From the sequence record PZ476263.1: a stretch of DNA of 64,000 nucleotides; one strand, 5' to 3'. Below the pieces are notes generated by a model. That model was not told where the DNA came from, did not search any database, and saw only the letters and a program-made list of their open reading frames with translations. The position numbers were made by a program, and so were the translations under genes. Positions 26,679 to 46,950 of the stretch are shown here, one piece after another. Numbering within the stretch: the stretch's first letter is position 1; each line of letters starts with the position of its first letter. The DNA comes from a phage.

Positions 26679-26912
26679 TTAATCTTCAATCAATTCGAAT
26701 TCTGGAGCGAAGAGAACTATATTTTGGTCCTCTTCACCTGCCCAGATCCTTGCTGTACAAGGCTTGCCGCTTTTACAACAAAAGTAAACATCGGCCTCGT
26801 AGATATCTCCTACAGAAATTCCATAAGAAGAAAGACTAACGCCATTGGTATCGGGAATGTCGTTCTTTCTGATCTTTATCGAAATTTCTTTTTCTACATA
26901 TGTATTTCTCAA
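26679..26912 (-). CDS. hypothetical protein
   Basis: 77-aa ORF. Confidence 0.45.
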   Translation of the reverse strand: MRNTYVEKEISIKIRKNDIPDTNGVSLSSYGISVGDIYEADVYFCCKSGKPCTARIWAGEEDQNIVLFAPEFELIED

Positions 26913-27352
26913 CGTTCAATCTCCTTCTTTTTGGACATAGTGATGAAATAGTTCTGACCTTTCTTGCACTGGTTAAACCAGCCAACAAGATATCCATCTT
27001 CGATACGAATATCATACTCAGGGTATTCGCCCGTTCCACTGATTATATGGAAAAGTTTACCGAAGTCAATAAAGGTCAGATTATACTGAAAGTTTTCCTC
27101 GTCCTGGAAGATTGCAACAGCAGAGCTTCGGCCCTTTGACGTAGTAATAAACTTAAGTTTAAGTTCACGATGCTCATGATCGACAATGTTAACTTTTCTC
27201 TCAAGCAAGTAATTTGGGTCAACACGGGGCCAATGAGCTTTAAATCTTTCAGCGCCTTCTTCAGTAAAGGCATCACCATCGTAACCAGTAAACCATTTAC
27301 CATTATCTTTTACGTAGCCATGATAACTACGCTTACCTTTTACTTTAATCAT
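26909..27352 (-). CDS. hypothetical protein
   Basis: 147-aa ORF. Confidence 0.5.
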   Translation of the reverse strand: MIKVKGKRSYHGYVKDNGKWFTGYDGDAFTEEGAERFKAHWPRVDPNYLLERKVNIVDHEHRELKLKFITTSKGRSSAVAIFQDEENFQYNLTFIDFGKLFHIISGTGEYPEYDIRIEDGYLVGWFNQCKKGQNYFITMSKKKEIER

Positions 27353-27552
27353 TCCGTTATCTCCTCTTGTTCTGGATCTTCGATCATTGAGCTTTTAACT
27401 CTTGACCCGTATGTGGTCATTTCACCCGACCTACTCGAACCCTCAGGTGCTCTTATGACAGCATGACCTCTTAATAGTGTTCCTTCGTAGGTTTGTCCAA
27501 CTACAAAACCCATTTGGGAAACACCATTATCTCTATAACAAAGTAAATTCAT
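27349..27552 (-). CDS. small paralogue array member 11 (divergent)
   Basis: 67 aa; GQTYEG...IEDPEQEE; shares family scaffold. Confidence 0.55.
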   Translation of the reverse strand: MNLLCYRDNGVSQMGFVVGQTYEGTLLRGHAVIRAPEGSSRSGEMTTYGSRVKSSMIEDPEQEEITE

Positions 27553-27763
27553 CGTTCTCTATTTTAATTTCCTCTGTGATTTTATTTTCGGGATCAAGAA
27601 TAAGGCATGACTTTTTACACGGCACGGAATAAAACAACCCCCGCTCGTTTGGACAGATAATTAAAATATTTCGACCTCCCATATCTTTACCCTCGTAAGA
27701 CTCTCCTACCATTACCCCTTTGTCCCTCAGGAAACTATCCTCTTTTATGTAGATATACCTCAT
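27533..27763 (-). CDS. small paralogue array member 10
   Basis: 76 aa; MRYIYIKED...VGESYEG...ILDPE. Confidence 0.6.
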   Translation of the reverse strand: MRYIYIKEDSFLRDKGVMVGESYEGKDMGGRNILIICPNERGLFYSVPCKKSCLILDPENKITEEIKIENDEFTLL

Positions 27764-27960
27764 AGGCTGTTTTCCTCAGGGTCAAGAATAAAATGTTTAT
27801 CTTCGCAAAATCCCCAGTTATTTTCTCGTCCTAATGGATAGATACAGAGAATATTTTTCTTTATACTTGCATATTTCCCTTCATAAGTACAGCCTATTTC
27901 TACATGTTTCCAAGTAGGAACACTTAAGCATATGTATTTTTTAAATGTTTCTTCATTCAT
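27760..27960 (-). CDS. small paralogue array member 9
   Basis: About 66 aa from internal Met (track ORF to 27984); KKYICLS...IGCTYEG...LCIYPLG...ILDPEE. Confidence 0.6.
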   Translation of the reverse strand: MNEETFKKYICLSVPTWKHVEIGCTYEGKYASIKKNILCIYPLGRENNWGFCEDKHFILDPEENSL

Positions 27961-28156
27961 TTTGGTCCTCCCCCTCAGGGTCAATAACGAAGTGTATAGA
28001 ATTTAAATATCTTATCCCACCATCCAACCCTGTCGGGTAGATACAAAGATAGTGAAGCATTACGCTATCTTCACATCCATAATAAGTCGATCCTAAAGAA
28101 ACTTGACTGCTTGCTTTATCTGATAAGCAGATGTACTTTTTTAAATCCTGTTTCAT
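27953..28156 (-). CDS. small paralogue array member 8
   Basis: 67 aa; KKYICLSD...GSTYYG...LCIYPTG...VIDPEGE. Confidence 0.6.
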   Translation of the reverse strand: MKQDLKKYICLSDKASSQVSLGSTYYGCEDSVMLHYLCIYPTGLDGGIRYLNSIHFVIDPEGEDQNE

Positions 28157-28359
28157 TCATTAACCTCCTCAGGGTCGAGAATGAAATCATTAAAATCGCA
28201 AATTATCCAATCAGCAGACCAAGGGTGATGACCATCAGGGAAAATATATAGAACACCAGGTATCATTCCCCCTATAAAACCTGTATATGTCTCGCCTATT
28301 TTGACAAGATCCTCGTTACTTTTTATACAGAGGAACTTTTTAGTGTTTTTATCTCTCAT
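28153..28359 (-). CDS. small paralogue array member 7
   Basis: 68 aa; KKFLCIKS...IGETYTG...LYIFPDG...ILDPEE. Confidence 0.6.
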   Translation of the reverse strand: MRDKNTKKFLCIKSNEDLVKIGETYTGFIGGMIPGVLYIFPDGHHPWSADWIICDFNDFILDPEEVNE

Positions 28360-28565
28360 TTTTTAATATCCTCTGGTTCCTTTGCAAAACTCTTAGTGCC
28401 TATATATACCCATCCACTACCTATTCCATGAGGATATATACAAAGTGCATCCGACATTGTACTGTCGAATCCTGAATAAGTCTCCCCCAAATTAAGATTT
28501 GAGCATCCTTTGGTGCTTATGCATATGTAATTTTGAATATACATTTCAGGTTTTTGTTTCATTTT
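28356..28565 (-). CDS. small paralogue array member 6
   Basis: About 69 aa from internal Met (track ORF to 28622); NYICIS...LGETYSG...LCIYPHG. Confidence 0.55.
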   Translation of the reverse strand, partial: KMKQKPEMYIQNYICISTKGCSNLNLGETYSGFDSTMSDALCIYPHGIGSGWVYIGTKSFAKEPEDIKK

Positions 28566-28566
28566 A

Positions 28567-28764
28567 TTACTCCTCGTGCTCGGGGTCAAGAACGAAGTCC
28601 GCAGAATGATAGTACACACCATAAGTTTCTATCCCTTTCGGAAAAATATGAAGATAGTTGCTCATTAAAATATCTTTACGACCATAATAGGTCAATCCTT
28701 GAGAGATTGCTGTACCTGCCTCATCAGATATGCAAAGATACTTTTTAAATCCTATTTCACTCAT
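28567..28764 (-). CDS. small paralogue array member 5
   Basis: 65 aa; KKYLCISD...GLTYYG...LHIFPKG...VLDPEHEE. Confidence 0.6.
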   Translation of the reverse strand: MSEIGFKKYLCISDEAGTAISQGLTYYGRKDILMSNYLHIFPKGIETYGVYYHSADFVLDPEHEE

Positions 28765-28953
28765 TTAATCTCCTTCCGGATCAGCCGCTAAGCAAGATCC
28801 CTTACAAGGTGCTGACCTGAGCCAACCCTCATCGTTTAAATAGTAAATGATAATAACAGCATCTCCTATACCCTCAGTGCCTTCGTAAGATTCTCCTATT
28901 ATCAACGGGTAGTCTTCCAAAAGGCGATCTTCTTTTATGTAGATATATTTCAT
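28765..28953 (-). CDS. small paralogue array member 4
   Basis: 62 aa; MKYIYIKED...IGESYEG...AADPEGD. Confidence 0.6.
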   Translation of the reverse strand: MKYIYIKEDRLLEDYPLIIGESYEGTEGIGDAVIIIYYLNDEGWLRSAPCKGSCLAADPEGD

Positions 28954-29145
28954 TTATTCATCGCCTTCGGGATCTTCGACAAAATTATCTAACTTTACAG
29001 GCATAGATAAATTATCAGTCACCTTCACTGTGATGTAAATACTTTGAAAAGATTTAAATTTATTCTCTTCCCGATAAGTCTCGCCAACTACCAAGAGTTT
29101 AGAGTCCTTATTTTGTATGCATAGATAATTTGTCATTGTTTTCAC
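28954..29145 (-). CDS. small paralogue array member 3
   Basis: 63 aa; NYLCIQN...VGETYRE...VEDPEGDE. Confidence 0.6.
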   Translation of the reverse strand: MKTMTNYLCIQNKDSKLLVVGETYREENKFKSFQSIYITVKVTDNLSMPVKLDNFVEDPEGDE

Positions 29146-29345
29146 CTGTATTCAGGGTCTTCCGTGAAACTCTCCTTATTGAAAAATAGAGTAGTATCTT
29201 CATTTGGGAACGTTATAGGTATGTACTTACCCCGAGGAATACTATCGTTTATAAAGTAAGTCATACCTAATTGAAGTTTAGTGCTGTGTATGTTACTTAT
29301 ACATATAACCCCGACAAATCTTTCACCCTTCCTCTCCTTCTTCAT
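29142..29345 (-). CDS. small paralogue array member 2
   Basis: 67 aa; VGVICISN...LGMTYF...TEDPEYR. Confidence 0.55.
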   Translation of the reverse strand: MKKERKGERFVGVICISNIHSTKLQLGMTYFINDSIPRGKYIPITFPNEDTTLFFNKESFTEDPEYR

Positions 29346-29532
29346 ATATTTCAGGATCCTCTACAAAATCAGATTTCTTAAGCCATAGTTCCAAAGTATC
29401 ACTTACCCTTACGGATATCTGCCCACCAAATATTTTAGATGGTCTTACATAGTAAGTTTCTCCGATTACAAGTTTGTAAGTAGACCTATTGCTAACGCAG
29501 AGAAACTTAACATATTTTTGCTGTATACTCAT
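29323..29532 (-). CDS. small paralogue array member 1
   Basis: 69 aa; KFLCVSN...IGETYY...VEDPEIYEE. Confidence 0.55.
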   Translation of the reverse strand: MSIQQKYVKFLCVSNRSTYKLVIGETYYVRPSKIFGGQISVRVSDTLELWLKKSDFVEDPEIYEEGEEG

Positions 29533-29849
29533 GCAAGGCTTCGAACATACTCAAAGACTTTTTCATAATCTTCACCAAAGGAAACATAACCACTTCCCTT
29601 CGGATTGTCTAAACCATATGAATCGTCTTCAAATTTTTCCAGAATGATCCCGCCAGTGTATTCGATATACATCAAATCTCGTACTTTTGTCCACTTACCT
29701 ATACCAAAGGAAGCGAGATCTTTTTTGCAAATTTTAACATGCATATCTTTCTCTCCAGTATGATAGATATAAACATCCCCACTTTGGAGCTGTTCAACAA
29801 TGACCTCTGGAAAGATACCGCTTTGTGATTTACCGAATACCTTTTTCAT
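29529..29849 (-). CDS. hypothetical protein
   Basis: 106-aa ORF immediately upstream of the array. Confidence 0.5.
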   Translation of the reverse strand: MKKVFGKSQSGIFPEVIVEQLQSGDVYIYHTGEKDMHVKICKKDLASFGIGKWTKVRDLMYIEYTGGIILEKFEDDSYGLDNPKGSGYVSFGEDYEKVFEYVRSLA

Positions 29850-29863
29850 TTTACCCCCAATAA

Positions 29864-30544
29864 TTAGTGATTGAATTTAAAAACTGCCCGTGCAAAACCT
29901 TCTGGTGTTAGTGATCGCAATTGTTTTGTCCGATCAGACTTTCCACCTAAATACCGCCATCCCCAAAAACATCCAATATGTTCAACAGGTTTCTTTTCAG
30001 GCATTATAAACCCATTTCCTGACCAAAGGCAAGTCTTTTTAGTGTAGGCATTCTGTAAAGGCATCTGAGGATGATAAGAACCTTCGTGTGGTTCCAGATA
30101 ACCCCCATACTCATACGGATCAAAGTAATGGTCAGGTTTTCGCCATAGGGTACTCATCTTTCCTACAGGATTCTCCACAAACCAAGGACAATTAAATGTA
30201 TTCGCAATCCGCTCTACCATTTTTGCATTGATGATTGACTCCATCAACTGATCATTAGTCCTCTCATGTTTTGCACCCGCTACCGTTAAGTTTGTGCAAG
30301 AAGGGAAAGAGAAGATGATATCTGGCTTTGGGATACCCGCTTTGGCTGCAAAGGCTTCAAAATTATCATCAATCCAACAATTCACATACTCAATATTTGG
30401 ATGCTCTTTACGCATCTTGTACTGACCGTGATCCGCCGTATCGGCATTGAAGCAATAAACTTTCCAACCTGCCTTTGCATACTCATAGCCCATAAAGCCA
30501 CTACCGTCAAAAAGCGACCAAACCACTTTAAAAATATTAATCAT
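29864..30544 (-). CDS. putative DNA (cytosine-5)-methyltransferase-like protein (short)
   Basis: 226 aa; motif I-like LFDGSGFMG, motif IV-like FSFPSCTNL (PC dipeptide), motif VI-like FVENPVG (ENV); too short for a canonical enzyme with target-recognition domain. Confidence 0.5.
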   Translation of the reverse strand: MINIFKVVWSLFDGSGFMGYEYAKAGWKVYCFNADTADHGQYKMRKEHPNIEYVNCWIDDNFEAFAAKAGIPKPDIIFSFPSCTNLTVAGAKHERTNDQLMESIINAKMVERIANTFNCPWFVENPVGKMSTLWRKPDHYFDPYEYGGYLEPHEGSYHPQMPLQNAYTKKTCLWSGNGFIMPEKKPVEHIGCFWGWRYLGGKSDRTKQLRSLTPEGFARAVFKFNH

Positions 30545-30545
30545 A

Positions 30546-30875
30546 TTATCCTCGGATTGAAAGTTTCGCCAAATAAAATATAACCAGGTACAAGCCGTAT
30601 GCTAACGCAACCGAACTCAGTATTGTAATTGTGACAGGCAAGGCCCATAAAAGAACGATAATCATCATCGTTAAACCGAATGCTCCACCAAAACACTCTA
30701 AAAAAGCTTCACTTCCGAACTTAATGGGGTCCAAAGATTTCTTTATCTTGTCCCTTAGGAAAAGAAAAGACATAATAACAAATATTGCGATCCCCAGCAA
30801 GACCCATTGGGTAACAGAGGTGTTTTGTCGGATAAAATGATACCATGCATCATAAATTACTGTCAAGTTTTCCAT
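30546..30875 (-). CDS. membrane protein
   Basis: 109 aa, three hydrophobic segments. Confidence 0.5.
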   Translation of the reverse strand: MENLTVIYDAWYHFIRQNTSVTQWVLLGIAIFVIMSFLFLRDKIKKSLDPIKFGSEAFLECFGGAFGLTMMIIVLLWALPVTITILSSVALAYGLYLVIFYLAKLSIRG

Positions 30876-31240
30876 TAGGTCCTCACTGATAGTTTAACAA
30901 GGATTTCAATAATTTTTACAAGTACAAAGATTAAGACTGCAAAAATAGACACAAAAATAATCAAAGGTAAAAGGTATATTGTCCCTGTGATCAATGCTGA
31001 AATAAGTAAGGAAAAGAAAATCTCCGGTACACCATCCCAACACCACAGTTGCTTACTCTTTTTGTATTGATACCTTAAAATACCAAATAAAGATACAATT
31101 GAAAAAGATATGAAAATGATAAATGGTGTTTCCTTCGAGATCAAGAAACTTATTACATCATTAAACCAAAATATTACGACTCTCTGTGCGAATTCAATCA
31201 TTTCTTTTTCCTCTCTTTCTTCTCTGGTTTTACATCGCAA
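30875..31240 (-). CDS. membrane protein
   Basis: 121 aa, several hydrophobic segments; ATGA overlap with downstream gene. Confidence 0.5.
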   Translation of the reverse strand: MRCKTREEREEKEMIEFAQRVVIFWFNDVISFLISKETPFIIFISFSIVSLFGILRYQYKKSKQLWCWDGVPEIFFSLLISALITGTIYLLPLIIFVSIFAVLIFVLVKIIEILVKLSVRT

Positions 31241-31407
31241 ATTTTGGCTTCATATGCAATTGGTGTTACATAGCGCCAAGTCTTTTTGTAATGGTCGAGG
31301 AGTTCTCTCATATTCTCCTCGTCCTTTGCCCAACCACAAACGTGAGGTATTTCATCAACAGACATTTGACACTTAATATACCAACGCGTTTCTGTGTTTT
31401 TATTCAT
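31198..31407 (-). CDS. hypothetical protein
   Basis: Likely starts at internal Met (MNKNTETRWY); track ORF extends to 31479. Confidence 0.4.
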   Translation of the reverse strand: MNKNTETRWYIKCQMSVDEIPHVCGWAKDEENMRELLDHYKKTWRYVTPIAYEAKICDVKPEKKERKKK

Positions 31408-31640
31408 GATTTTTTCACCAGTTCGTAAATCTCGAAGTCGGATTTCTTTACACACGCTCGCCAACCTGAAGATAAGCAACGAGCAACAACAAAGTCGTCT
31501 GGTAAAGAGGGTGTATTGTTTTCAACCATCAACACATCGCCTTTGAAAACATTAATTTCTATGCTTGTATTATCCCAACATACGTAAGAATAATTATCAT
31601 TTTTGGCAACTAAGAACATTTTAATATTTTTAATTGTCAT
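31404..31640 (-). CDS. hypothetical protein
   Basis: 78-aa ORF. Confidence 0.45.
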   Translation of the reverse strand: MTIKNIKMFLVAKNDNYSYVCWDNTSIEINVFKGDVLMVENNTPSLPDDFVVARCLSSGWRACVKKSDFEIYELVKKS

Positions 31641-31921
31641 TTTACCAACCCCAATTCATATGCCGAGTATAAATCATTTCCTTCGTACCCGTCAACAATA
31701 ATTTTCACATTTTTATCGCGACGCTCATCAACAACCATTCGAGATCCTGCGCCGGATTTAACAAGGTAGGTGTCCTTATTAACCCTTACCGTTTGTGTTC
31801 TTCTTGCAGAAACAATCTCAACCTGTGTATTTTTAGGAACAAATTTAACAATCTCCACCATAGTACCTTCGGTCCCCATTTCCATAAGGTCATACTTAAT
31901 AGCTTTCATTAATGTAGTCAT
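31637..31921 (-). CDS. hypothetical protein
   Basis: 94-aa ORF. Confidence 0.5.
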   Translation of the reverse strand: MTTLMKAIKYDLMEMGTEGTMVEIVKFVPKNTQVEIVSARRTQTVRVNKDTYLVKSGAGSRMVVDERRDKNVKIIVDGYEGNDLYSAYELGLVK

Positions 31922-32091
31922 TGTGCATTCTCCTCTGAAGGGCCTTCTTTAGCCTTTGCAATTGCGTTAATAGTGATTATATAGCTATCTTGTAAGTTTT
32001 CAAGCTCTTTCTTAGTGTCAAAAGGATACCATCCATCTTTAGACATCTTGGCTATGGTTTCGTAATCATCAAATTTCACATCTGAAGGCAT
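31921..32091 (-). CDS. hypothetical small protein (not in ORF track, <60 aa)
   Basis: 57-aa ORF read from reverse complement; TAATG and ATGA overlaps couple it to both neighbours. Confidence 0.4.
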
Positions 32092-32468
32092 TAGCATAAT
32101 TTTACCTCTTTGTTCAGAAAGTCTTTGGCAATAAGACGGATAATTTCTTCTGCGTTTTCAGAATTTACCACACCATAGTTCTTGAAAGGTAAAATGGTGT
32201 CTTCACAAACTTCTTCGAAGAATTTAAATTCGTCATCACATATTTCAAAATATTCGTCACCATTCTCCAGGCAAGTTAACTTTTTTCCATTTATACACAA
32301 AGCCTCTTCAATAAAATAAACCTCATTGAAAAGTCCAATTTTCGTAGGACAAAACACACCACCATTAGAATTAAGTAAATTTACCATTGGGGTGTTGGAA
32401 CGAGGATTATCCTCGACAAACTCAGAGACACGAGATTCTTTTAATTTGTACCATTTACCTAATTCCAT
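32091..32468 (-). CDS. hypothetical protein
   Basis: 125-aa ORF. Confidence 0.5.
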   Translation of the reverse strand: MELGKWYKLKESRVSEFVEDNPRSNTPMVNLLNSNGGVFCPTKIGLFNEVYFIEEALCINGKKLTCLENGDEYFEICDDEFKFFEEVCEDTILPFKNYGVVNSENAEEIIRLIAKDFLNKEVKLC

Positions 32469-32533
32469 CTTCTTTTCCTCTTTTATTGTGTTGATGAGAT
32501 AAGTATAAGGATATTTTAGGTGGCTGTCAATAG

Positions 32534-40258: not shown

Positions 40259-40463
40259 TAATAATCTCCACCTTGTCTGTAATTGAACCCATGTAACACA
40301 AACCCTCAGGACCGCCAAACGGGACCAGTATCTTATTTTTGTACTCCATAGCATCATCCGATGCTTCAAAGATCATACTGTATACTGGCTTACCGAATAA
40401 GTCACAGTCTGTAATATAACGGAACTTATCTCCCTTTACAATATCTTTCGCAAGTTTATTCAT
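40251..40463 (-). CDS. hypothetical protein
   Basis: 70-aa ORF. Confidence 0.4.
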   Translation of the reverse strand: MNKLAKDIVKGDKFRYITDCDLFGKPVYSMIFEASDDAMEYKNKILVPFGGPEGLCYMGSITDKVEIIND

Positions 40464-41154
40464 TTTCTTTATTCTCCAGGGTGATTGGTGATATACCTAA
40501 ACCTTCCATACCCTTATTTAAGATTACACGGTGTACACTAGCTTCAAACTCAGCCTGTGCTTGTGCCTTGATCACTTCGGTATTCTCCTCGAACATACGG
40601 ACAGCAAAATCTGTAGTTTCAGGCAGTTTTCGATGAATCTCTGTCAGTTTGGAGTAAGCTATCGCAAGTTTTCCTTTGGTCACTTTACCACTCGTAATCA
40701 TATTTTCAATATCTGAAAGACCATCTTCATAGTCTTTGAGCATCTTTTGTAAATCCTTTTTAATGTCTACACCAGATAATTCAGATGTACTCTTTTGACC
40801 GACAATACGCGGGATCGGGCCTTCACCTTTTACATGACGTAAAGTAGCCGGAACACCTTGACCACTATGGCAAGACACGAGACTGGCCCATTGGTAAGCG
40901 GTCATTTCAACTTCAACAATACGCTGGCGAGATTTTTCATAATATGTTGGGATACCTGAAGTAACATCCTGATAGCCTTGACTAATCCGTAAACAAACAC
41001 GCTGGTTATGTGTGGTATCTGATCCAAACATTTCCATGTCACCACCCTGAGGATGAGTAATAGTCACCATCCCATAAGCAGGGTGTTCTTGAATAAGACG
41101 GTCCATCGAACCTACTTGCTGAACTTTAACTTCTGGTTTTTGTTTGTTGCTCAT
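40456..41154 (-). CDS. hypothetical protein
   Basis: 232-aa ORF. Confidence 0.55.
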   Translation of the reverse strand: MSNKQKPEVKVQQVGSMDRLIQEHPAYGMVTITHPQGGDMEMFGSDTTHNQRVCLRISQGYQDVTSGIPTYYEKSRQRIVEVEMTAYQWASLVSCHSGQGVPATLRHVKGEGPIPRIVGQKSTSELSGVDIKKDLQKMLKDYEDGLSDIENMITSGKVTKGKLAIAYSKLTEIHRKLPETTDFAVRMFEENTEVIKAQAQAEFEASVHRVILNKGMEGLGISPITLENKENE

Positions 41155-41158
41155 ATGA

Positions 41159-41464
41159 TCACTCCTTCAAAGATTCAATGCATTCTTCCAAAATCTGTTT
41201 TGCATGTTTAAGTTTAATGTTGTTTTGACTTTGTTTTTGTTTTTCACGAATTTCTTCAAAGAAAAGATGATCAGCCAAGTTCATAAGTTCTGTTGCTAAT
41301 TCACGGGCCTCTTCACGAGACAAACGGATGCCTGCCGCTGCTGATTTGCCACTTGCAATCTGCGTCATGTTGGTTTCAATAACAATCTTACCCCTTTCAA
41401 TCTCGGAGGGAGAGATACACAAAGAACCTTCATATTGTGAACTTTTTTCTTTATACAATTTCAT
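41159..41464 (-). CDS. hypothetical coiled-coil protein
   Basis: 101-aa ORF. Confidence 0.45.
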   Translation of the reverse strand: MKLYKEKSSQYEGSLCISPSEIERGKIVIETNMTQIASGKSAAAGIRLSREEARELATELMNLADHLFFEEIREKQKQSQNNIKLKHAKQILEECIESLKE

Positions 41465-41474
41465 ACTTTTCTCC

Positions 41475-42017
41475 TTATTTACGTTTAAATTTGTTATGGC
41501 CTTTTCCTTTCTTCAATTTCGATTGTTTCCAATCTGAAGTATTTGAATTTCCAATTTCAATCGGGCTTGCAAACCAACTTGTAAGATCTTTCTTAGTGAT
41601 ATGCTTCCCAATAGTAGGACATGCACCAAGTAATACAGCTTTAGATTTAATTTCTACAACAGCTTCATTAACTTCATCTTTAAAAGAATCCATAAATTTA
41701 CCAGTTGTCTCAATATCGTAATTACTGTATGAATGAACATAAAGCATAGTTTTAAGCTCATGACGGTTACTTACAACAACTTTAAAACCAGTGTAAGTCC
41801 TCAATCTTGAAAAGATTTCCTGAATGTCATCTGCATCTACAACCGAATCTTTGTCAAGAGACTGAATCAATAAGTATTTAAAATCGAATTTGTAGTCAGA
41901 TTTTGGATTCTTGATTGTTTCAACATACTCTTCAAGACGTTCCCACTCAGTAGGATCATTAATAAGGTCTTCAATACGAAAGATAAAGGGATGCTTGCGA
42001 TTTTGTTGAACTGTCAT
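41475..42017 (-). CDS. hypothetical protein
   Basis: 180-aa ORF, basic C-terminus. Confidence 0.5.
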   Translation of the reverse strand: MTVQQNRKHPFIFRIEDLINDPTEWERLEEYVETIKNPKSDYKFDFKYLLIQSLDKDSVVDADDIQEIFSRLRTYTGFKVVVSNRHELKTMLYVHSYSNYDIETTGKFMDSFKDEVNEAVVEIKSKAVLLGACPTIGKHITKKDLTSWFASPIEIGNSNTSDWKQSKLKKGKGHNKFKRK

Positions 42018-42071
42018 TTTATTATCCTCTTTTGTTTAAGTAGGGTCATTATACATGACCCTTATTGTGTG

Positions 42072-42323
42072 TCAAGCAAAAATTAAAGAAAGTACCTTAA
42101 CAACGACCTGTGGGAACAGGATGATATAATAAACCCCTAAAAGTAAGAAAGGGATAATCAATAACTTTGACTTTACACTGAAAGTTTTATTGAACAAAGA
42201 TTTAATCTGTTCGTAAGTATTGATGATTGTCTGATAATAGGCGGCAGATCCTGAAAAAATACCGATAAGAATCAGAACCATTACACTCGCATTTTCAGAA
42301 ATTGTAAAAATTGCATCGATCAT
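42072..42323 (-). CDS. small membrane protein
   Basis: 83 aa, two or three hydrophobic helices. Confidence 0.45.
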   Translation of the reverse strand: MIDAIFTISENASVMVLILIGIFSGSAAYYQTIINTYEQIKSLFNKTFSVKSKLLIIPFLLLGVYYIILFPQVVVKVLSLIFA

Positions 42324-42325
42324 TT

Positions 42326-42574
42326 TTATTCTCCTTGGTTAATGGTGGAAACTGAAATACGGGTTTTACCTGTGCTGTAAGATGTACTTACCTGTGCACT
42401 TGGACAATAGATTGCACGTAGTGCAGGACCTTGACCACGTACAACGTAAATCTCACAACCTTTTGCCACAAGCTCTGGAGGAAGAACATAGCTATCTGAT
42501 ACTTTTTCCGTTTGTCGGTCGTCACATGCACTAATCATAAACACTAATGCGATTACTGTCAACAACTTTTTCAT
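42326..42574 (-). CDS. putative small lipoprotein
   Basis: 82 aa; signal peptide with lipobox MKKLLTVIALVFMISAC. Confidence 0.5.
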   Translation of the reverse strand: MKKLLTVIALVFMISACDDRQTEKVSDSYVLPPELVAKGCEIYVVRGQGPALRAIYCPSAQVSTSYSTGKTRISVSTINQGE

Positions 42575-42934
42575 TTAATCAACCCTCTTAAAGTAAACCC
42601 TAACCTTAACGACATCAAGAATCTTATTGCTATTCCCGCCGCAATTTTGTAGTCGACGACGTTTATCATCGGCTTCACTGTAGTCCCCAAATAAGTAAAA
42701 ATCTTTTCCAATTGTGGGGATATTATCCTGACCACGAATGGCTAATGCATATTTAATGCCGTCGCCTTCGATAAGTCCACGACTTACTTGTTTACTTACC
42801 CATTTCTCAAACTCCTTTGGTGTGGTGTCTTCAATCTCTTTGTAACCTTCCATTCCCCAAAGCTTATCCCAAAACTTGTCTTCAATCAAGATAATTTTAT
42901 CTTTTAATTTCTTAATGCTATTTTTAATCTTCAT
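42575..42934 (-). CDS. hypothetical protein
   Basis: 119-aa ORF. Confidence 0.5.
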   Translation of the reverse strand: MKIKNSIKKLKDKIILIEDKFWDKLWGMEGYKEIEDTTPKEFEKWVSKQVSRGLIEGDGIKYALAIRGQDNIPTIGKDFYLFGDYSEADDKRRRLQNCGGNSNKILDVVKVRVYFKRVD

Positions 42935-43421
42935 CTATAATTTTCATCCAACTTGGTTTAGAGAATCCCATCGCAAGAGTATCAATCTCTTGCTTAGCCT
43001 TTTGTTCTATTACATTTTGCAATACGATTTCGTTTGCCTCTGGTAAACTAGAATACGCTTCTCTGATTACCCTGTCAAACTTTTCCTTCATCTTTTTAAC
43101 TTCAACCTTAATTTCTACTTCGTCCATTGCATCTTTACAAACACAACAATGACCCTTAAAGTTTAATGTTGACCTGTCTTGTATTGGGAGTGCCACTCTC
43201 CCACAATAAGCACATACGGGAGTACCATAATCACCGATCATCACTGTTTTTGTGGGACGCAAACCAGTTTTAGTAGGGTTCCAGTCAGAAACCCAACCAT
43301 CTTTTCCATAAAGAGTGGAAAAGAAAGGGTATGCTCTTTCATCTACATGATCTTCATCTTTATTTTTCGTCTTTCCTAAGAATTTTATCATCTTCGTATC
43401 CTCGTCGTTTTGATGATTCAA
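42924..43421 (-). CDS. hypothetical protein with Cys-rich zinc-finger-like motif; first gene of leftward block
   Basis: 165 aa; CAYCGR...CCVCKD. Confidence 0.5.
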   Translation of the reverse strand: MNHQNDEDTKMIKFLGKTKNKDEDHVDERAYPFFSTLYGKDGWVSDWNPTKTGLRPTKTVMIGDYGTPVCAYCGRVALPIQDRSTLNFKGHCCVCKDAMDEVEIKVEVKKMKEKFDRVIREAYSSLPEANEIVLQNVIEQKAKQEIDTLAMGFSKPSWMKIIDED

Positions 43422-43449
43422 ATTTACGAGAACTTGAGGGAGAAGTCAA
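43421..43449 (-). promoter_or_regulatory. sigma70-like promoter for leftward block
   Basis: On - strand TTGACT (rc 43444-43449), 17-nt spacer, TAAATT (rc 43421-43426); spacer contains the GAACTTGAGGG motif also repeated at 51.3-51.5 kb. Confidence 0.5.
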
Positions 43450-43512
43450 TACTTGATTTTCATTTATTTTGTGATATTCTTCTCTCAACTTAAACGAGAA
43501 GGAGAGTAATAG

Positions 43513-44043
43513 ATGAAAAAAGATAAAGAGCTTGCAATTGCAATCAGTCTTGCAGCACATCACCACGTTGATCAAACAGATAAAGGAGGTAACGTATACA
43601 TCCTTCACCCTTTGGAAGTTATGAATACTCTAGCAAGTCGTGGTGATTATCATCTTATGGCTGCTGGTGTTCTTCACGACATTCTGGAGGATTGCCCTGT
43701 TACTGAACAAGATTTATTGGACGCAGGGATTAGTATAAAGACAGTAAGAACAGTGAAGAAAGTTACAAAGGTTAAGGGTCAGAAACCTCGGGACTATCTC
43801 TTAGGTATCTTGTATGACATTAACGCTTCAAAAGTTAAGTTGGCAGATCTTAAGCATAACTTGGATCTTCTACGTGTTCGTGAAATCGACGAGAAAGCAG
43901 TAAAAAGAATTAAAAAATATGTTGACATGTATACCGTAATAGAGCAATCTATTGCCTGGCAACAAAAGAACTTTGAAGATTCGGATTCTTACTATAATGC
44001 AAGAGATGAGTATCTGGAGGAGTTAATCAAAATACTGAAATAA
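43513..44043 (+). CDS. small alarmone hydrolase (RelA/SpoT-type HD domain, (p)ppGpp hydrolase-like)
   Basis: 176 aa; HD-domain motifs AAHHH, AAGVLHDILED and KLADLKHNL, characteristic of SpoT/Mesh1-type hydrolases. Confidence 0.7.
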   Translation: MKKDKELAIAISLAAHHHVDQTDKGGNVYILHPLEVMNTLASRGDYHLMAAGVLHDILEDCPVTEQDLLDAGISIKTVRTVKKVTKVKGQKPRDYLLGILYDINASKVKLADLKHNLDLLRVREIDEKAVKRIKKYVDMYTVIEQSIAWQQKNFEDSDSYYNARDEYLEELIKILK

Positions 44044-44059
44044 ATTATTAAAAAAGTTA

Positions 44060-44088
44060 TTGACACGATAAACAAAACGCTCCATAAT
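44060..44088 (+). promoter_or_regulatory. sigma70-like promoter
   Basis: TTGACA (44060-44065), 17 nt, CATAAT (44083-44088); RBS AAAGGAG before ATG 44121. Confidence 0.6.
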
Positions 44089-44120
44089 GAGCACATCAAC
44101 TAAACGAAAGGAGAAACAAA

Positions 44121-45350
44121 ATGCAAGCAACTTATCAACGTATGGACCAGAGCATGTTCAAAAAACGTATCAGCATTCGTCATATGGAAGCGCTTATTCG
44201 CTTGGGTGCATCGATTGGTAAAACTGTGTTCTTTTATGGCGGCGCTGGTCTGGGTAAATCCGAGAAAGTTCGTCAGATCGCAGACGCAATGTTCCCAAAT
44301 CGCGTAGGTAATAACCTCTGTGATGTTCGTCTGTCCGATAAAGAACCACAAGACGTTGCAGGTATTCCGATCCCTGTTACCTTGATTGATGAGAAAACTG
44401 GTAAAGAAGTTACTCGTACCGTTTATGCTGTACCAAACTTCTGGCCTACCGATCCTGATTGGCAGGGTATTGTTTTCCTTGATGAACTGCCTAACGCCCC
44501 GCTGGGTACTCAGCACTCGGCATATCAGGTAATTCTGGATCACGTTGCAGGTGAGCATAAATTCCCTGAAGGCTGCGTGTTTGTAGGTGCGGGTAACCGT
44601 GATACCGATGGTGCAGGTACTACCACAATGCCAGGTCCATTGGTTAACCGTATGATCTTGGCAGAAATTGATTATAACTTGGATGTTTGGATTGAAGATT
44701 ATGCGATTCCTTATCGTTTACATCCGAACGTAATTGGTTTCCTCAAGCAATTCCCTGAACATTTTTACACAGGGGATGTTGAGAACCGAAGCACTCAGGT
44801 ATTCGCTTCGCCTCGCCAATGGAAAACTGTTTCAGATATCCTTTATAAATATGATCAAGGAACTATGTCTGAATTTATCGCAGAGGTGGCGATTGCAGGT
44901 ACAGTTGGCGAAGGTCTTGAAGTTCAAGTATTGGCTTATCATATGCGTACTAAAGAACTTCCGGCGATTGAAGACATTTTCAGCGGTAAAACTAAAGAGC
45001 ATAAGTTGGATCGTAGTAAAAACGACCTGGTTTATGTATTGGCACAGACTGGTCTTCGTAAGATGGAAGATGAAGTCATGGATAATGAGATTAAGGATGA
45101 AGATTTCCTGGAGCGTTCAGGTAACTTCTTAACCTTTATGTACAATAACTATTACGATAACAACAAGGATACTCTGATTGCGATGATCTTGGGTGTATTC
45201 CGTGGTCCAAATGACAAGCCGTCCATTTTGACTGTTAACCCTCGTCGTCAGAAGATGATCCCGATGATGCGTAAGACTTGTCCGACCATCTCAGCTGTTG
45301 TTATGGAGTACATGACTCGTTATGGTCAACTGATTAAAGATTTTGAATAA
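44121..45350 (+). CDS. MoxR/CbbQ/CobS-like AAA+ ATPase
   Basis: 409 aa; Walker A FFYGGAGLGKSE; Walker B VFLDELPNAP. Confidence 0.75.
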   Translation: MQATYQRMDQSMFKKRISIRHMEALIRLGASIGKTVFFYGGAGLGKSEKVRQIADAMFPNRVGNNLCDVRLSDKEPQDVAGIPIPVTLIDEKTGKEVTRTVYAVPNFWPTDPDWQGIVFLDELPNAPLGTQHSAYQVILDHVAGEHKFPEGCVFVGAGNRDTDGAGTTTMPGPLVNRMILAEIDYNLDVWIEDYAIPYRLHPNVIGFLKQFPEHFYTGDVENRSTQVFASPRQWKTVSDILYKYDQGTMSEFIAEVAIAGTVGEGLEVQVLAYHMRTKELPAIEDIFSGKTKEHKLDRSKNDLVYVLAQTGLRKMEDEVMDNEIKDEDFLERSGNFLTFMYNNYYDNNKDTLIAMILGVFRGPNDKPSILTVNPRRQKMIPMMRKTCPTISAVVMEYMTRYGQLIKDFE

Positions 45351-45355
45351 AATCG

Positions 45356-45384
45356 TTGACAACAAAATCTAACTGACTTATTAT
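45356..45384 (+). promoter_or_regulatory. sigma70-like promoter
   Basis: TTGACA (45356-45361), 17 nt, TATTAT (45379-45384). Confidence 0.5.
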
Positions 45385-45432
45385 AGGGGCATCTCGAAAG
45401 GGGTGTCCCTTTTTAATACCGGAGGATATGTA

Positions 45433-46950
45433 ATGATTGACCAAAAAGAAAAAGATATGATTCAACAACAAGACTCAGAAGCTGTTCGTATTATCGAGGC
45501 AGCAAGCCTTCAGTTGATGCGATTTAAACCGTTTTACGGAGTCATGCTGTCATCCATGCCCGTTAAGAACGGTACTTCATGGTGCTCCACAATGGCAACT
45601 GATGGTCGTAACCTCTATTATCATCCAGAATTTATCGCAGGGATGACAGATGAGCGTAAACAGTTAGTTCTTTCACGCCTGAAAGCTTCTGTGAGCGATC
45701 CTCAGCGCCTTAAAGAACTTACCCTGTACATCGAGTCATTTTATCGTCGTAAGACCGCCAGAGAGGTCGCTCTTATCCTTGAGCACGAATGTGACCACGT
45801 AGTTTCTGATCACGCCAGTCGTGGGAAAGGTTTTAATCACGAGCTTTACAATATTGCTGCGGATCATCGTATCAATACAACGGCAGTCCTGATCCATCAA
45901 AAAGGTGATGCATTAGGTAAGGCTTGGTTCCCTCAGGGTGAAAAGACAGTATTTGATCCGTTGCAAGAGTTTGGTTTTATGCATTGGGCTTATTGTGATT
46001 TCAAATTCAAAGATATGTATACAGAGCAGATCTATGAAATTTTGAACAAAGAAGAAAATGAGAAAGATAAATCTGATGGGAAAGGAAATGGATCGGGTAA
46101 CGGTGGGCCGGATGGCGATCTGAAAGGTGTTGACCAACACACAGATGAAAACGGTGATCCTGATGATGGTAATAATGATGTTGAAGATGCATTAGGTATC
46201 GACAAGAAAAGCAAACCAAAGCAGACAGCCGAAGAGCGTCAATATAACGATGGTGTAATGCGTCGAGCTATTGAGAATGCTGTTCAGGCGGCGGGTTCTG
46301 GTGCGCCGGAAGATGCTCGTCTCTTTGTTGAAGCTGACGGTAAGCCAAAGATTAACTACCTTCGTTTGCTTCGTCGTACTATTGAGCGTTTATTTAAACA
46401 GGATGTGTCTTATCGTCGTTTATCTCGTCGTAGTCACTCTTTGACTCGTACATTGCGTGGTGCTGGTTATATTAGTTCTCGACAAACTGTTGGTTTACCT
46501 TCTCACAACAAGCAGAAGACTATTCGTGCGGGTGTTTTCTTTGATGTGTCGGGTTCTTTTAACGATGAACTTCTTAAGCCAACAATGCGAGAGATCAGGG
46601 GTCTTTGTAATCTTTATGATGAGTTTGAAGTTACAATGGCCTGTTGGTCAACTAAGGTTGGTAACATAGAAACTTACACCAAAAAGAATATTAAGGACAT
46701 GGCTAACTATAAGATTAAGACTACTTTTGGTACGGACGTATCTTGTGTCTTTGAAGAGCTAGATAAGATGGAAAATCCTATGGATCAGATCATTATCTAT
46801 ACGGATGGTTACTTCTCTGATGTTTCTCAAACAAAAGATTGGGCCAAAAAGTATGGTAAGAATGTTCTTTGGATCATCCTTGGTCGTGGAGGAAATTCTT
46901 TCAAACCTCCATTCGGCAACGCGATTGATTTTGATAAGTACGTTAAGTAA
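45433..46950 (+). CDS. VWA-domain protein with HExxH motif and acidic linker (partner of AAA+ ATPase)
   Basis: Start placed at ATG 45433 after GGAGGA (track starts at GTG 45403); HECDH motif; acidic low-complexity segment; C-terminal VFFDVSGSF... resembling a VWA MIDAS region. Confidence 0.6.
   Translation: MIDQKEKDMIQQQDSEAVRIIEAASLQLMRFKPFYGVMLSSMPVKNGTSWCSTMATDGRNLYYHPEFIAGMTDERKQLVLSRLKASVSDPQRLKELTLYIESFYRRKTAREVALILEHECDHVVSDHASRGKGFNHELYNIAADHRINTTAVLIHQKGDALGKAWFPQGEKTVFDPLQEFGFMHWAYCDFKFKDMYTEQIYEILNKEENEKDKSDGKGNGSGNGGPDGDLKGVDQHTDENGDPDDGNNDVEDALGIDKKSKPKQTAEERQYNDGVMRRAIENAVQAAGSGAPEDARLFVEADGKPKINYLRLLRRTIERLFKQDVSYRRLSRRSHSLTRTLRGAGYISSRQTVGLPSHNKQKTIRAGVFFDVSGSFNDELLKPTMREIRGLCNLYDEFEVTMACWSTKVGNIETYTKKNIKDMANYKIKTTFGTDVSCVFEELDKMENPMDQIIIYTDGYFSDVSQTKDWAKKYGKNVLWIILGRGGNSFKPPFGNAIDFDKYVK

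Follow-up and report, generated by a model that had tools for sequence, protein, structure and literature searches.

A stand-alone small alarmone hydrolase of probable Aph1 type in a Vequintavirinae-related phage and its candidate role against alarmone-synthetase immunity

Why should a phage carry a hydrolase of the RelA/SpoT kind, and which nucleotide would such an enzyme attack? These questions are raised by a gene located at positions 43513–44043 of a stretch of 64,000 nucleotides (64 kb, hereafter the window) from the phage sequence record PZ476263.1, whose nearest deposited relatives are unclassified Vequintavirinae of E. coli (phages W70, A73, LTH01 and A5-4). Phage alarmone hydrolases have been proposed as counters to alarmone-synthetase toxins and to CapRel-type immunity, two of them having been tested, solely by co-expression. 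We read the product of this gene as a stand-alone adenosine 3'-pyrophosphohydrolase of the Aph1 branch that would counter alarmone-synthetase immunity, an overall reading to which we give a little better than an even chance. Phage-encoded small alarmone hydrolases (SAHs) and the Aph family are already published, and a homologue with 48% identity from the same phage subfamily has already been tested; the gene presented here is an additional, diverged SAH in an E. coli-type phage lineage and would probably serve as a counter-defence tool. The predicted adenosine-type substrate (ppApp, or the pyrophosphate on adenosine 76 of tRNA) is also sharper than the usual 'ppGpp hydrolase' annotation, and could correct a widespread database label borne by homologues of the protein.

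The gene and its hydrolase domain

The open reading frame (ORF) is intact, running from an ATG start to a TAA stop and encoding 176 residues, exactly as described in an earlier note made from the sequence alone, and the motifs quoted there are present in the translation (LAAHHH at residues 13–18, AAGVLHDILED at 50–60 and KLADLKHNL at 109–117). HD_4 (PF13328) is the sole Pfam family above its cut-off in the protein, scoring 36.9 bits (gathering cut-off 27.2) over residues 10–120. The match to PHROG 990, 'metal-dependent phosphohydrolase', has an E-value of 2e-47, while that to NCBIfam TIGR00691 (spoT_relA) is confined to profile positions 1–144 of 687, corresponding to the hydrolase part and leaving out the synthetase. 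By both Pfam and TIGR00691, the 176-aa protein therefore consists of a single HD domain, without synthetase, TGS or ACT domains. These profile searches bear out the earlier assignment of a phage-encoded HD hydrolase of the RelA/SpoT family devoid of a synthetase domain.

Alignment to the RelSeq structure (1vj7) pairs H32 with H53, H55-D56 with H77-D78, E59-D60 with E81-D82, D112 with D144 and N116 with N148, the RelSeq residues being those whose metal-binding and catalytic roles were reportedly worked out by Hogg et al. in 2004. In the query family, H32, H55-D56, E59-D60, D112 and N116 are all invariant or nearly so among the 120 closest homologues, on which all conservation counts given below are based. 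Given the HD_4 and TIGR00691 matches and these conserved catalytic residues, the protein is almost certainly a hydrolase-only member, or SAH, of the RelA/SpoT homologue (RSH) superfamily, and as far as its sequence can tell it looks catalytically competent. The corresponding features are:

43513–44043 (+): coding sequence of the SAH, an HD_4 protein of probable Aph1 type (ORF, Pfam HD_4, PHROG 990, relative 7smg, AlphaFold2 model)
43606–43608 (+): codon of His32, metal ligand, equivalent to RelSeq H53 (1vj7 alignment)
43675–43692 (+): codons of the HDILED motif, with His55-Asp56 (HD metal ligands) and Glu59-Asp60 (ED catalytic pair) (alignment, conservation)
43846–43875 (+): codons of Asp112 (metal ligand), Asn116, Asp118 and Arg121, equivalent to D110, N114, D116 and R119 of Aph1 (7smg alignment, conservation)

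Relatives of the protein were found at several depths of search. When 1.84 billion cluster representatives were scanned in full with HMMER, 10,930 matches passed E ≤ 1e-3, 2,096 of them also E ≤ 1e-10; a word-index homologue search with the single sequence yielded 4 proteins, and a new search with their alignment more than 5600. With tblastn, homologues were located in 252 phage records, whose hosts include Aeromonas, Streptococcus, Klebsiella, Escherichia, Cronobacter and Salmonella, among others.

Placement in the Aph1 branch

Among PDB structures, the best sequence match is the (p)ppApp-specific hydrolase Aph1 (adenosine 3'-pyrophosphohydrolase 1; 7SMG; E 1e-17, 68 bits, 33% identity); Rel enzymes reach about 40–45 bits and human Mesh1 (3nr1) 23.5 bits. 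When the 120 closest homologues are combined into a profile, the score is 160 bits for Aph1 and 67 bits for the best Rel. Structure prediction points the same way: the AlphaFold2 model (mean predicted local distance difference test score, pLDDT, 93.9; predicted TM-score 0.90) has Aph1 as its top Foldseek match (TM-score 0.92 normalised to Aph1, root-mean-square deviation 1.1 Å, 138 columns), whereas Mesh1, PaSAH and RelH align at deviations of 3.7–8.6 Å, with Mesh1 and PaSAH at 3.7–7 Å. The segment Y90–E143 of Aph1, a C-terminal part devoid of the HD motif that served its authors as the criterion for collecting the Aph family (PMC10083569), also matches the query in a pairwise BLASTP comparison (E 4e-10, 38% identity over 39 residues), used here as a proxy for the jackhmmer search of Ahmad et al.

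The residues that would read the base carry this placement further. The Aph signature comprises six residues, D24, R96, D116, R119, K133 and Y134, and a D24R/R119A double mutant of Aph1 gains ppGpp hydrolysis (Ahmad et al. 2023, PMC10083569); the numbering of the 7SMG chain is that of the paper, as checked at D24-K25-A26 and Y90–E143. Five of the six are present in the query, as D23, D118, R121, K135 and Y136, including the equivalents of D24 and R119. Within the homologue set, D23, R121 and Y136 are found in 120 of 120 sequences, K135 in 118 and D118 in 116. The guanine-recognition residues R43, R44 and S45 of TtRel are replaced in the query by D23, K24 and G25, and the guanine-stacking arginine (TtRel R43, RelSeq R44) thus becomes Asp23, an aspartate in every homologue of the set. 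All 12 purified Aph homologues hydrolysed ppApp, and ppGpp activity was undetectable for Aph1 and absent from 10 of the 12 (PMC10083569).

A second line of comparison leads to a phage enzyme. The protein of phage SSE121 shares 48% identity with the query across 136 residues (E 1e-40) and does not differ (100% identity) from the sole homologue in Salmonella phage PVP-SE1 (gp220), an SAH that Jimmy et al. classed as PbcSpo; this 48% identity would indirectly place the query in PbcSpo as well. By its sequence, the protein is therefore a probable member of the Aph1/PbcSpo branch and is not of the SpoT/Mesh1 type proposed in the earlier note, a proposal contradicted by the lower Mesh1 and Rel scores, by Asp23 in place of the arginine and by the presence of Arg121. 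We consider it probable that the enzyme is of Aph1 type with a preference for adenosine nucleotides. Its HD fold, metal ligands, ED pair and LADxxHN motif recur in SpoT and Rel domains and in metazoan Mesh1, but the similarity is much lower and the query differs by its Arg-to-Asp replacement, Arg121, Asp118 and Lys135-Tyr136; it is also free of synthetase and regulatory domains. The features that distinguish it are:

43579–43584 (+): codons of Asp23-Lys24, at the base-recognition position occupied by D24-K25 in Aph1 and by R43-R44 in TtRel (HMMER alignment to 7smg)
43915–43920 (+): codons of Lys135-Tyr136, the K133-Y134 signature pair of Aph1 (alignment, conservation)
43945–44040 (+): clade-specific C-terminal extension, residues 145–176 (model, Foldseek, alignment)

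The last of these amounts to about 30 extra C-terminal residues relative to Aph1, to which Foldseek aligns just about 138 columns. In the model, helices at 127–153 and 158–173 represent a prolonged helix 8 and one added helix, both absent from Aph1. Apart from the query, the extension, with its conserved Trp149, occurs solely in phage A73 and in a few metagenomic proteins. Aph1 itself has a compact eight-helix fold without a C-terminal helix 9 and forms a tetramer, with which the extra C-terminal helix of other SAHs has been argued to be incompatible (Ahmad et al. 2023, PMC10083569).

Candidate role and competing explanations

Characterised systems offer several points of comparison. Like the query, Aph1 from Bacteroides caccae is a single-domain HD_4 hydrolase, and all catalytic residues are common to both; Aph1, however, is the immunity enzyme of a temperate phage, where its gene adjoins that of a (p)ppApp synthetase fused to MuF, whereas the query is stand-alone in a Vequintavirinae-like phage of lytic type. 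The SAH of PVP-SE1 likewise stands alone in a Vequintavirinae genome, has the same Aph-type signature and, in PVP-SE1/SSE121, is encoded in the same divergent block, at its head or close to it, upstream of a conserved ATPase gene. It differs from the query by an 11-residue N-terminal extension, by a shorter and unrelated C-terminus, and by a gene annotated as 'thymidylate kinase' that lies upstream of it. In E. coli, this PVP-SE1 enzyme (PbcSpo) and the SAH of phage SSU5 (PaSpo) each neutralised five of five toxic small alarmone synthetases (toxSAS), namely CapRel, PhRel, PhRel2, FaRel2 and FaRel, and it was proposed that incoming phages could bypass alarmone-based defence by means of SAHs (Jimmy et al. 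2020, PMC7229694). Four toxSAS families pyrophosphorylate tRNA at its 3'-CCA terminus, a modification reversed by MESH1 and ATfaRel (Kurata et al., bioRxiv 2021.04.30.441581). The SSU5 SAH is stated to remove this tRNA pyrophosphate as well, and is in routine use for holding CapRel(SJ46), itself a bona fide system of anti-phage defence, in check.

The two other enzymes are likened to the query by description. The SSU5 SAH is phage-encoded and stand-alone like the query, but belongs to another SAH subfamily according to Jimmy et al. ATfaRel of Cellulomonas marina, a type IV SAH antitoxin of the PbcSpo subfamily, is a hydrolase-only RSH like the query and detoxifies toxSAS products including ppApp and pyrophosphorylated tRNA; unlike the query, it is part of a three-gene operon, where it flanks its toxin.

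A 3'-pyrophosphohydrolase specific for adenosine would make chemical sense as an antidote, given that adenosine 76 is what toxSAS modify. In the mechanism that we propose, the H...HD...D metal centre and the ED pair would allow a metal-activated water to cleave an adenosine-type 3'-pyrophosphate, the substrate being (p)ppApp produced by toxic synthetases and/or the pyrophosphate placed on A76 of tRNA by toxSAS such as CapRel, PhRel and FaRel2. Expressed from a host-type promoter heading the divergent block, the enzyme would reverse the action of FaRel/Apk-type and CapRel/PhRel/FaRel2-type toxins fired by the host or by a resident prophage upon infection. ATP and purine metabolism or tRNA charging would be restored, with counter-defence as the outcome. 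Substrate, timing of expression and role in infection are here inferred from the analysis as a whole, and we give an even chance, or slightly more, to the view that the main biological task of the gene is counter-defence directed at toxSAS or (p)ppApp toxins.

Several observations weigh against this proposal and should be set beside it. The toxSAS neutralisation data come from plasmid co-expression and not from phage infection (PMC7229694); our literature searches found no infection-level test of any phage SAH. Strict adenosine specificity is not assured, since 2 of the 12 Aph homologues displayed modest ppGpp hydrolysis (PMC10083569) and ATfaRel, which is PbcSpo as is the PVP-SE1 enzyme, is reported to degrade ppGpp as well as ppApp. 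The sixth signature residue is missing, the equivalent of Aph1 R96 being Gly98; this position varies among the 120 homologues (G in 52, R in 22, Q in 16), and Ahmad et al. do not count R96 with the five signature residues that lie close to the active site (PMC10083569). The modelled C-terminal extension may further entail a quaternary structure different from that of Aph1. Finally, the promoter candidate upstream of the gene matches the consensus at 8 of 12 positions, and the scan for a partner toxin covered 64 kb of a genome of about 140 kb.

The most familiar alternative is a (p)ppGpp hydrolase of SpoT/Mesh1-like function, which would lower host ppGpp and prevent or reverse the stringent response. 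The shared HD_4/RSH superfamily with its complete set of catalytic residues would accommodate such an activity, as would the ppGpp cleavage seen for ATfaRel and for two Aph homologues, and phage homologues from Klebsiella, Raoultella and Aeromonas are annotated as 'guanosine-3',5'-bis(diphosphate) 3'-pyrophosphohydrolase'. These annotations nonetheless rest on homology alone, and true ppGpp hydrolases are far less similar to the query than Aph1, for which, as for most of its purified homologues, no ppGpp activity was seen. The guanine-stacking arginine is an aspartate in the query, and Arg121 is invariant, its Aph1 equivalent R119 being proposed to exclude the O6 of guanine. We consequently regard ppGpp hydrolysis in the host as an unlikely main function. 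The earlier note had named two possible roles, of which the countering of toxins and defences is, in view of Asp23, Arg121 and the affinity to Aph1, much better supported than the manipulation of ppGpp and the stringent response. Some other 3'-phosphorylated substrate (NADPH, pAp or 3'-phosphoadenosine 5'-phosphosulfate, PAPS, or another nucleotide signal), with a role in metabolism or against a different immune signal, has in its favour the promiscuity of the family: MESH1 is an NADPH phosphatase and was crystallised with PAPS, and an orphan bacterial SAH has been reported as metabolically promiscuous. The query is much nearer to Aph1 than to Mesh1, however, its Aph signature is conserved, and the PVP-SE1 enzyme with 48% identity counters toxSAS products in vivo (PMC7229694), which makes this option somewhat more doubtful still.

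Two further explanations can be considered with less hesitation. The enzyme could protect the phage from a (p)ppApp synthetase or toxSAS of its own, in the manner of Aph1 with MuF-Apk2 or ATfaRel with FaRel; the founding member Aph1 and ATfaRel have precisely such roles, and toxSAS can be phage-encoded (PMC7229694). The known hydrolases of this kind adjoin their toxin gene, though, and a Pfam scan of the window's 126 ORFs detected neither a RelA_SpoT synthetase nor a MuF domain at E ≤ 0.001 (25 of the 26 Pfam families matched are known by name, and the remaining one has an E-value above 7.5e-4). Unlike those of Aph1 and ATfaRel, the SAH gene is therefore taken as stand-alone, its neighbours being unrelated to such toxins. 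Jimmy et al. also call the PVP-SE1 enzyme a stand-alone phage SAH, and the relatives of the phage are Vequintavirinae of virulent type rather than temperate phages with MuF toxins, which leaves self-immunity very improbable. That the protein is a catalytically dead or decaying remnant of an HD domain is more improbable again: nothing specific speaks for it beyond the identity of just about 52% to its counterpart in the nearest phages, a value typical of the neighbouring small genes (31–58%), while every metal ligand and catalytic residue is kept, with little or no variation among the homologues, the model is confident (pLDDT 93.9) and an independent sample contains a copy with 99% identity.

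Within the adenosine-directed, counter-defence interpretation that we favour, the physiological substrate could be pyrophosphorylated tRNA and not a free alarmone, the Aph-type pocket reading A76 as part of a phage tRNA 3'-end repair. We put this forward tentatively, as a possibility well short of an even chance. The SAH might then work alongside a CCA-adding enzyme, an RlaP-type protein and tRNA genes such as those of LTH01, and tRNA binding might be aided by the C-terminal helices specific to its clade. If true, Vequintavirinae-like phages would gain a broad immunity to CapRel-type fused toxin-antitoxin defences.

Genomic neighbourhood and start signals

ORFs of the window match baseplate, tail-fibre, family A DNA polymerase, and DnaB-like and PIF1-like helicase families. 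Deposited genomes are only distant relatives of the phage, which probably represents a new species or a new genus, in or close to Vequintavirinae. Genes are oriented leftward from 12720 to 43421 and rightward from 43513 to 64000, and the SAH gene is indeed the first of the rightward block, as the earlier note had stated; the same arrangement recurs in LTH01 and in an independent metagenome contig bearing the 99%-identical copy with the same neighbours. In LTH01, the homologue also heads the divergent block and is followed by an extra 177-aa gene and then by the ATPase gene; in SSE121, it comes second in that block. To the left of the SAH gene lie genes matching PHROGs of unknown function, and to its right those of a PHROG 1297 ATPase and of a DUF2201 metallopeptidase/VWA protein. 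The SAH is 52% identical to its LTH01 counterpart, compared with 31–58% for adjacent small genes, 87% for the ATPase and 82% for the VWA protein. A recent horizontal acquisition of the gene was considered and rejected: its GC content (37.3%) is close to that of the leftward genes at 40456–43421 (37%) and of the window (39%), and its identity to LTH01 is typical of its surroundings.

The start of the gene is preceded by two signals:

43500–43504 (+): Shine-Dalgarno sequence AGGAG, 8 nt 5' of the ATG (read from the sequence)
43453–43480 (+): candidate sigma-70 promoter with an extended -10 element (inferred by eye and from the LTH01 alignment)

At the Shine-Dalgarno site, GAGAAGGAGA is invariant in the alignment with LTH01. 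The candidate promoter consists of TTGATT (43453–43458) and TATTCT (43475–43480) separated by a 16-nt spacer ending in TGa, and its position is kept in LTH01, where the -10 element reads TATACT. A promoter scanner run with a threshold of 9/12 reported no plus-strand site upstream of the SAH gene, and the 8/12 candidate surfaced solely through the LTH01 alignment. Back-to-back with it, a promoter-like element lies on the minus strand (TTGACT-17-TAAATT). Conservation of the divergent intergenic region with LTH01 (120 bp; 43392–43512 in the window) is far above that of the flanking coding DNA, the invariant blocks including ACGAGAACTTGAGG and TCAATACTTGATTT, which suggests common back-to-back promoters or operator sites. 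The plus-strand candidate would be weakly indicative of expression by the host polymerase, and the SAH is probably made early.

At the left edge of this region, the mechanically called ORF at 42924–43421 (−) starts at a TTG (43421), and the gene call on the 99%-identical contig, of 155 aa, fits an internal ATG at 43391; the latter is probably the true start, which widens the intergenic region. The protein has cysteine pairs of CxxC type and matches PHROG 13698, of unknown function. Two antisense ORFs lying inside or overlapping the SAH gene, at 43794–43928 (−) and 43360–43608 (−), are taken as by-products of its coding frame.

Downstream, the ATPase and VWA genes are far better conserved with LTH01 than their neighbours, and five records match positions 42500–46000 at about 78% nucleotide identity, over these two genes only. 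The ATPase (44121–45350, +; 409 aa, PHROG 1297) has a Walker A motif, GGAGLGKSE, and no Pfam match at 1e-3; the next gene (45403–46950, +) encodes a 515-aa protein combining a DUF2201_N metallopeptidase and a VWA-like part, for which the 'HNH endonuclease' label of PHROG 1314 looks misleading. Between the SAH and ATPase genes, a near-consensus sigma-70 promoter is found at 44060–44088 (+; TTGACA-17-CATAAT, 11/12), and no plus-strand terminator was found after the SAH gene. From its sequence, the ATPase/VWA pair thus appears to have its own strong promoter of host type. The extra gene of LTH01 (L001:5561-6094, 177 aa, no Pfam match) is absent from positions 44044–44120 of the window, and phage A5-4 has an HNH homing endonuclease in the neighbourhood of the SAH–ATPase junction, which appears to be a hotspot of accessory genes.

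LTH01 has genes for five tRNAs and for a protein annotated as a CCA tRNA nucleotidyltransferase (Pfam PolyA_pol), together with a match to the RlaP RNA-repair family and a NADAR-domain protein, the last being assigned to the COG3236-noted coding sequence at 85955–86506. The positions concerned in LTH01 (73238–74682, 85955–86506 and 107154–108449) belong to a part of the genome that the window does not reach, and a tRNA scan of the 64-kb window returned none. This gene content of LTH01 points to a toolkit for tRNA and RNA-end repair and against toxins in the phage clade.

Further into the leftward block, the gene at 42326–42574 (−) encodes an 82-aa protein with a lipoprotein-like N-terminus, MKKLLTVIALVFMISAC, for which the related contig lists Pfam DUF4884; the product may be a lipoprotein of the phage, acting for example in superinfection exclusion. 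An 83-aa hydrophobic protein is encoded next to it, at 42072–42323. About 20 tightly packed and often overlapping ORFs of 59–125 aa, covered by the Pfam scan of the window, occupy positions 26900–32500 (−), and such runs of small, packed ORFs are typical of early or accessory phage genes.

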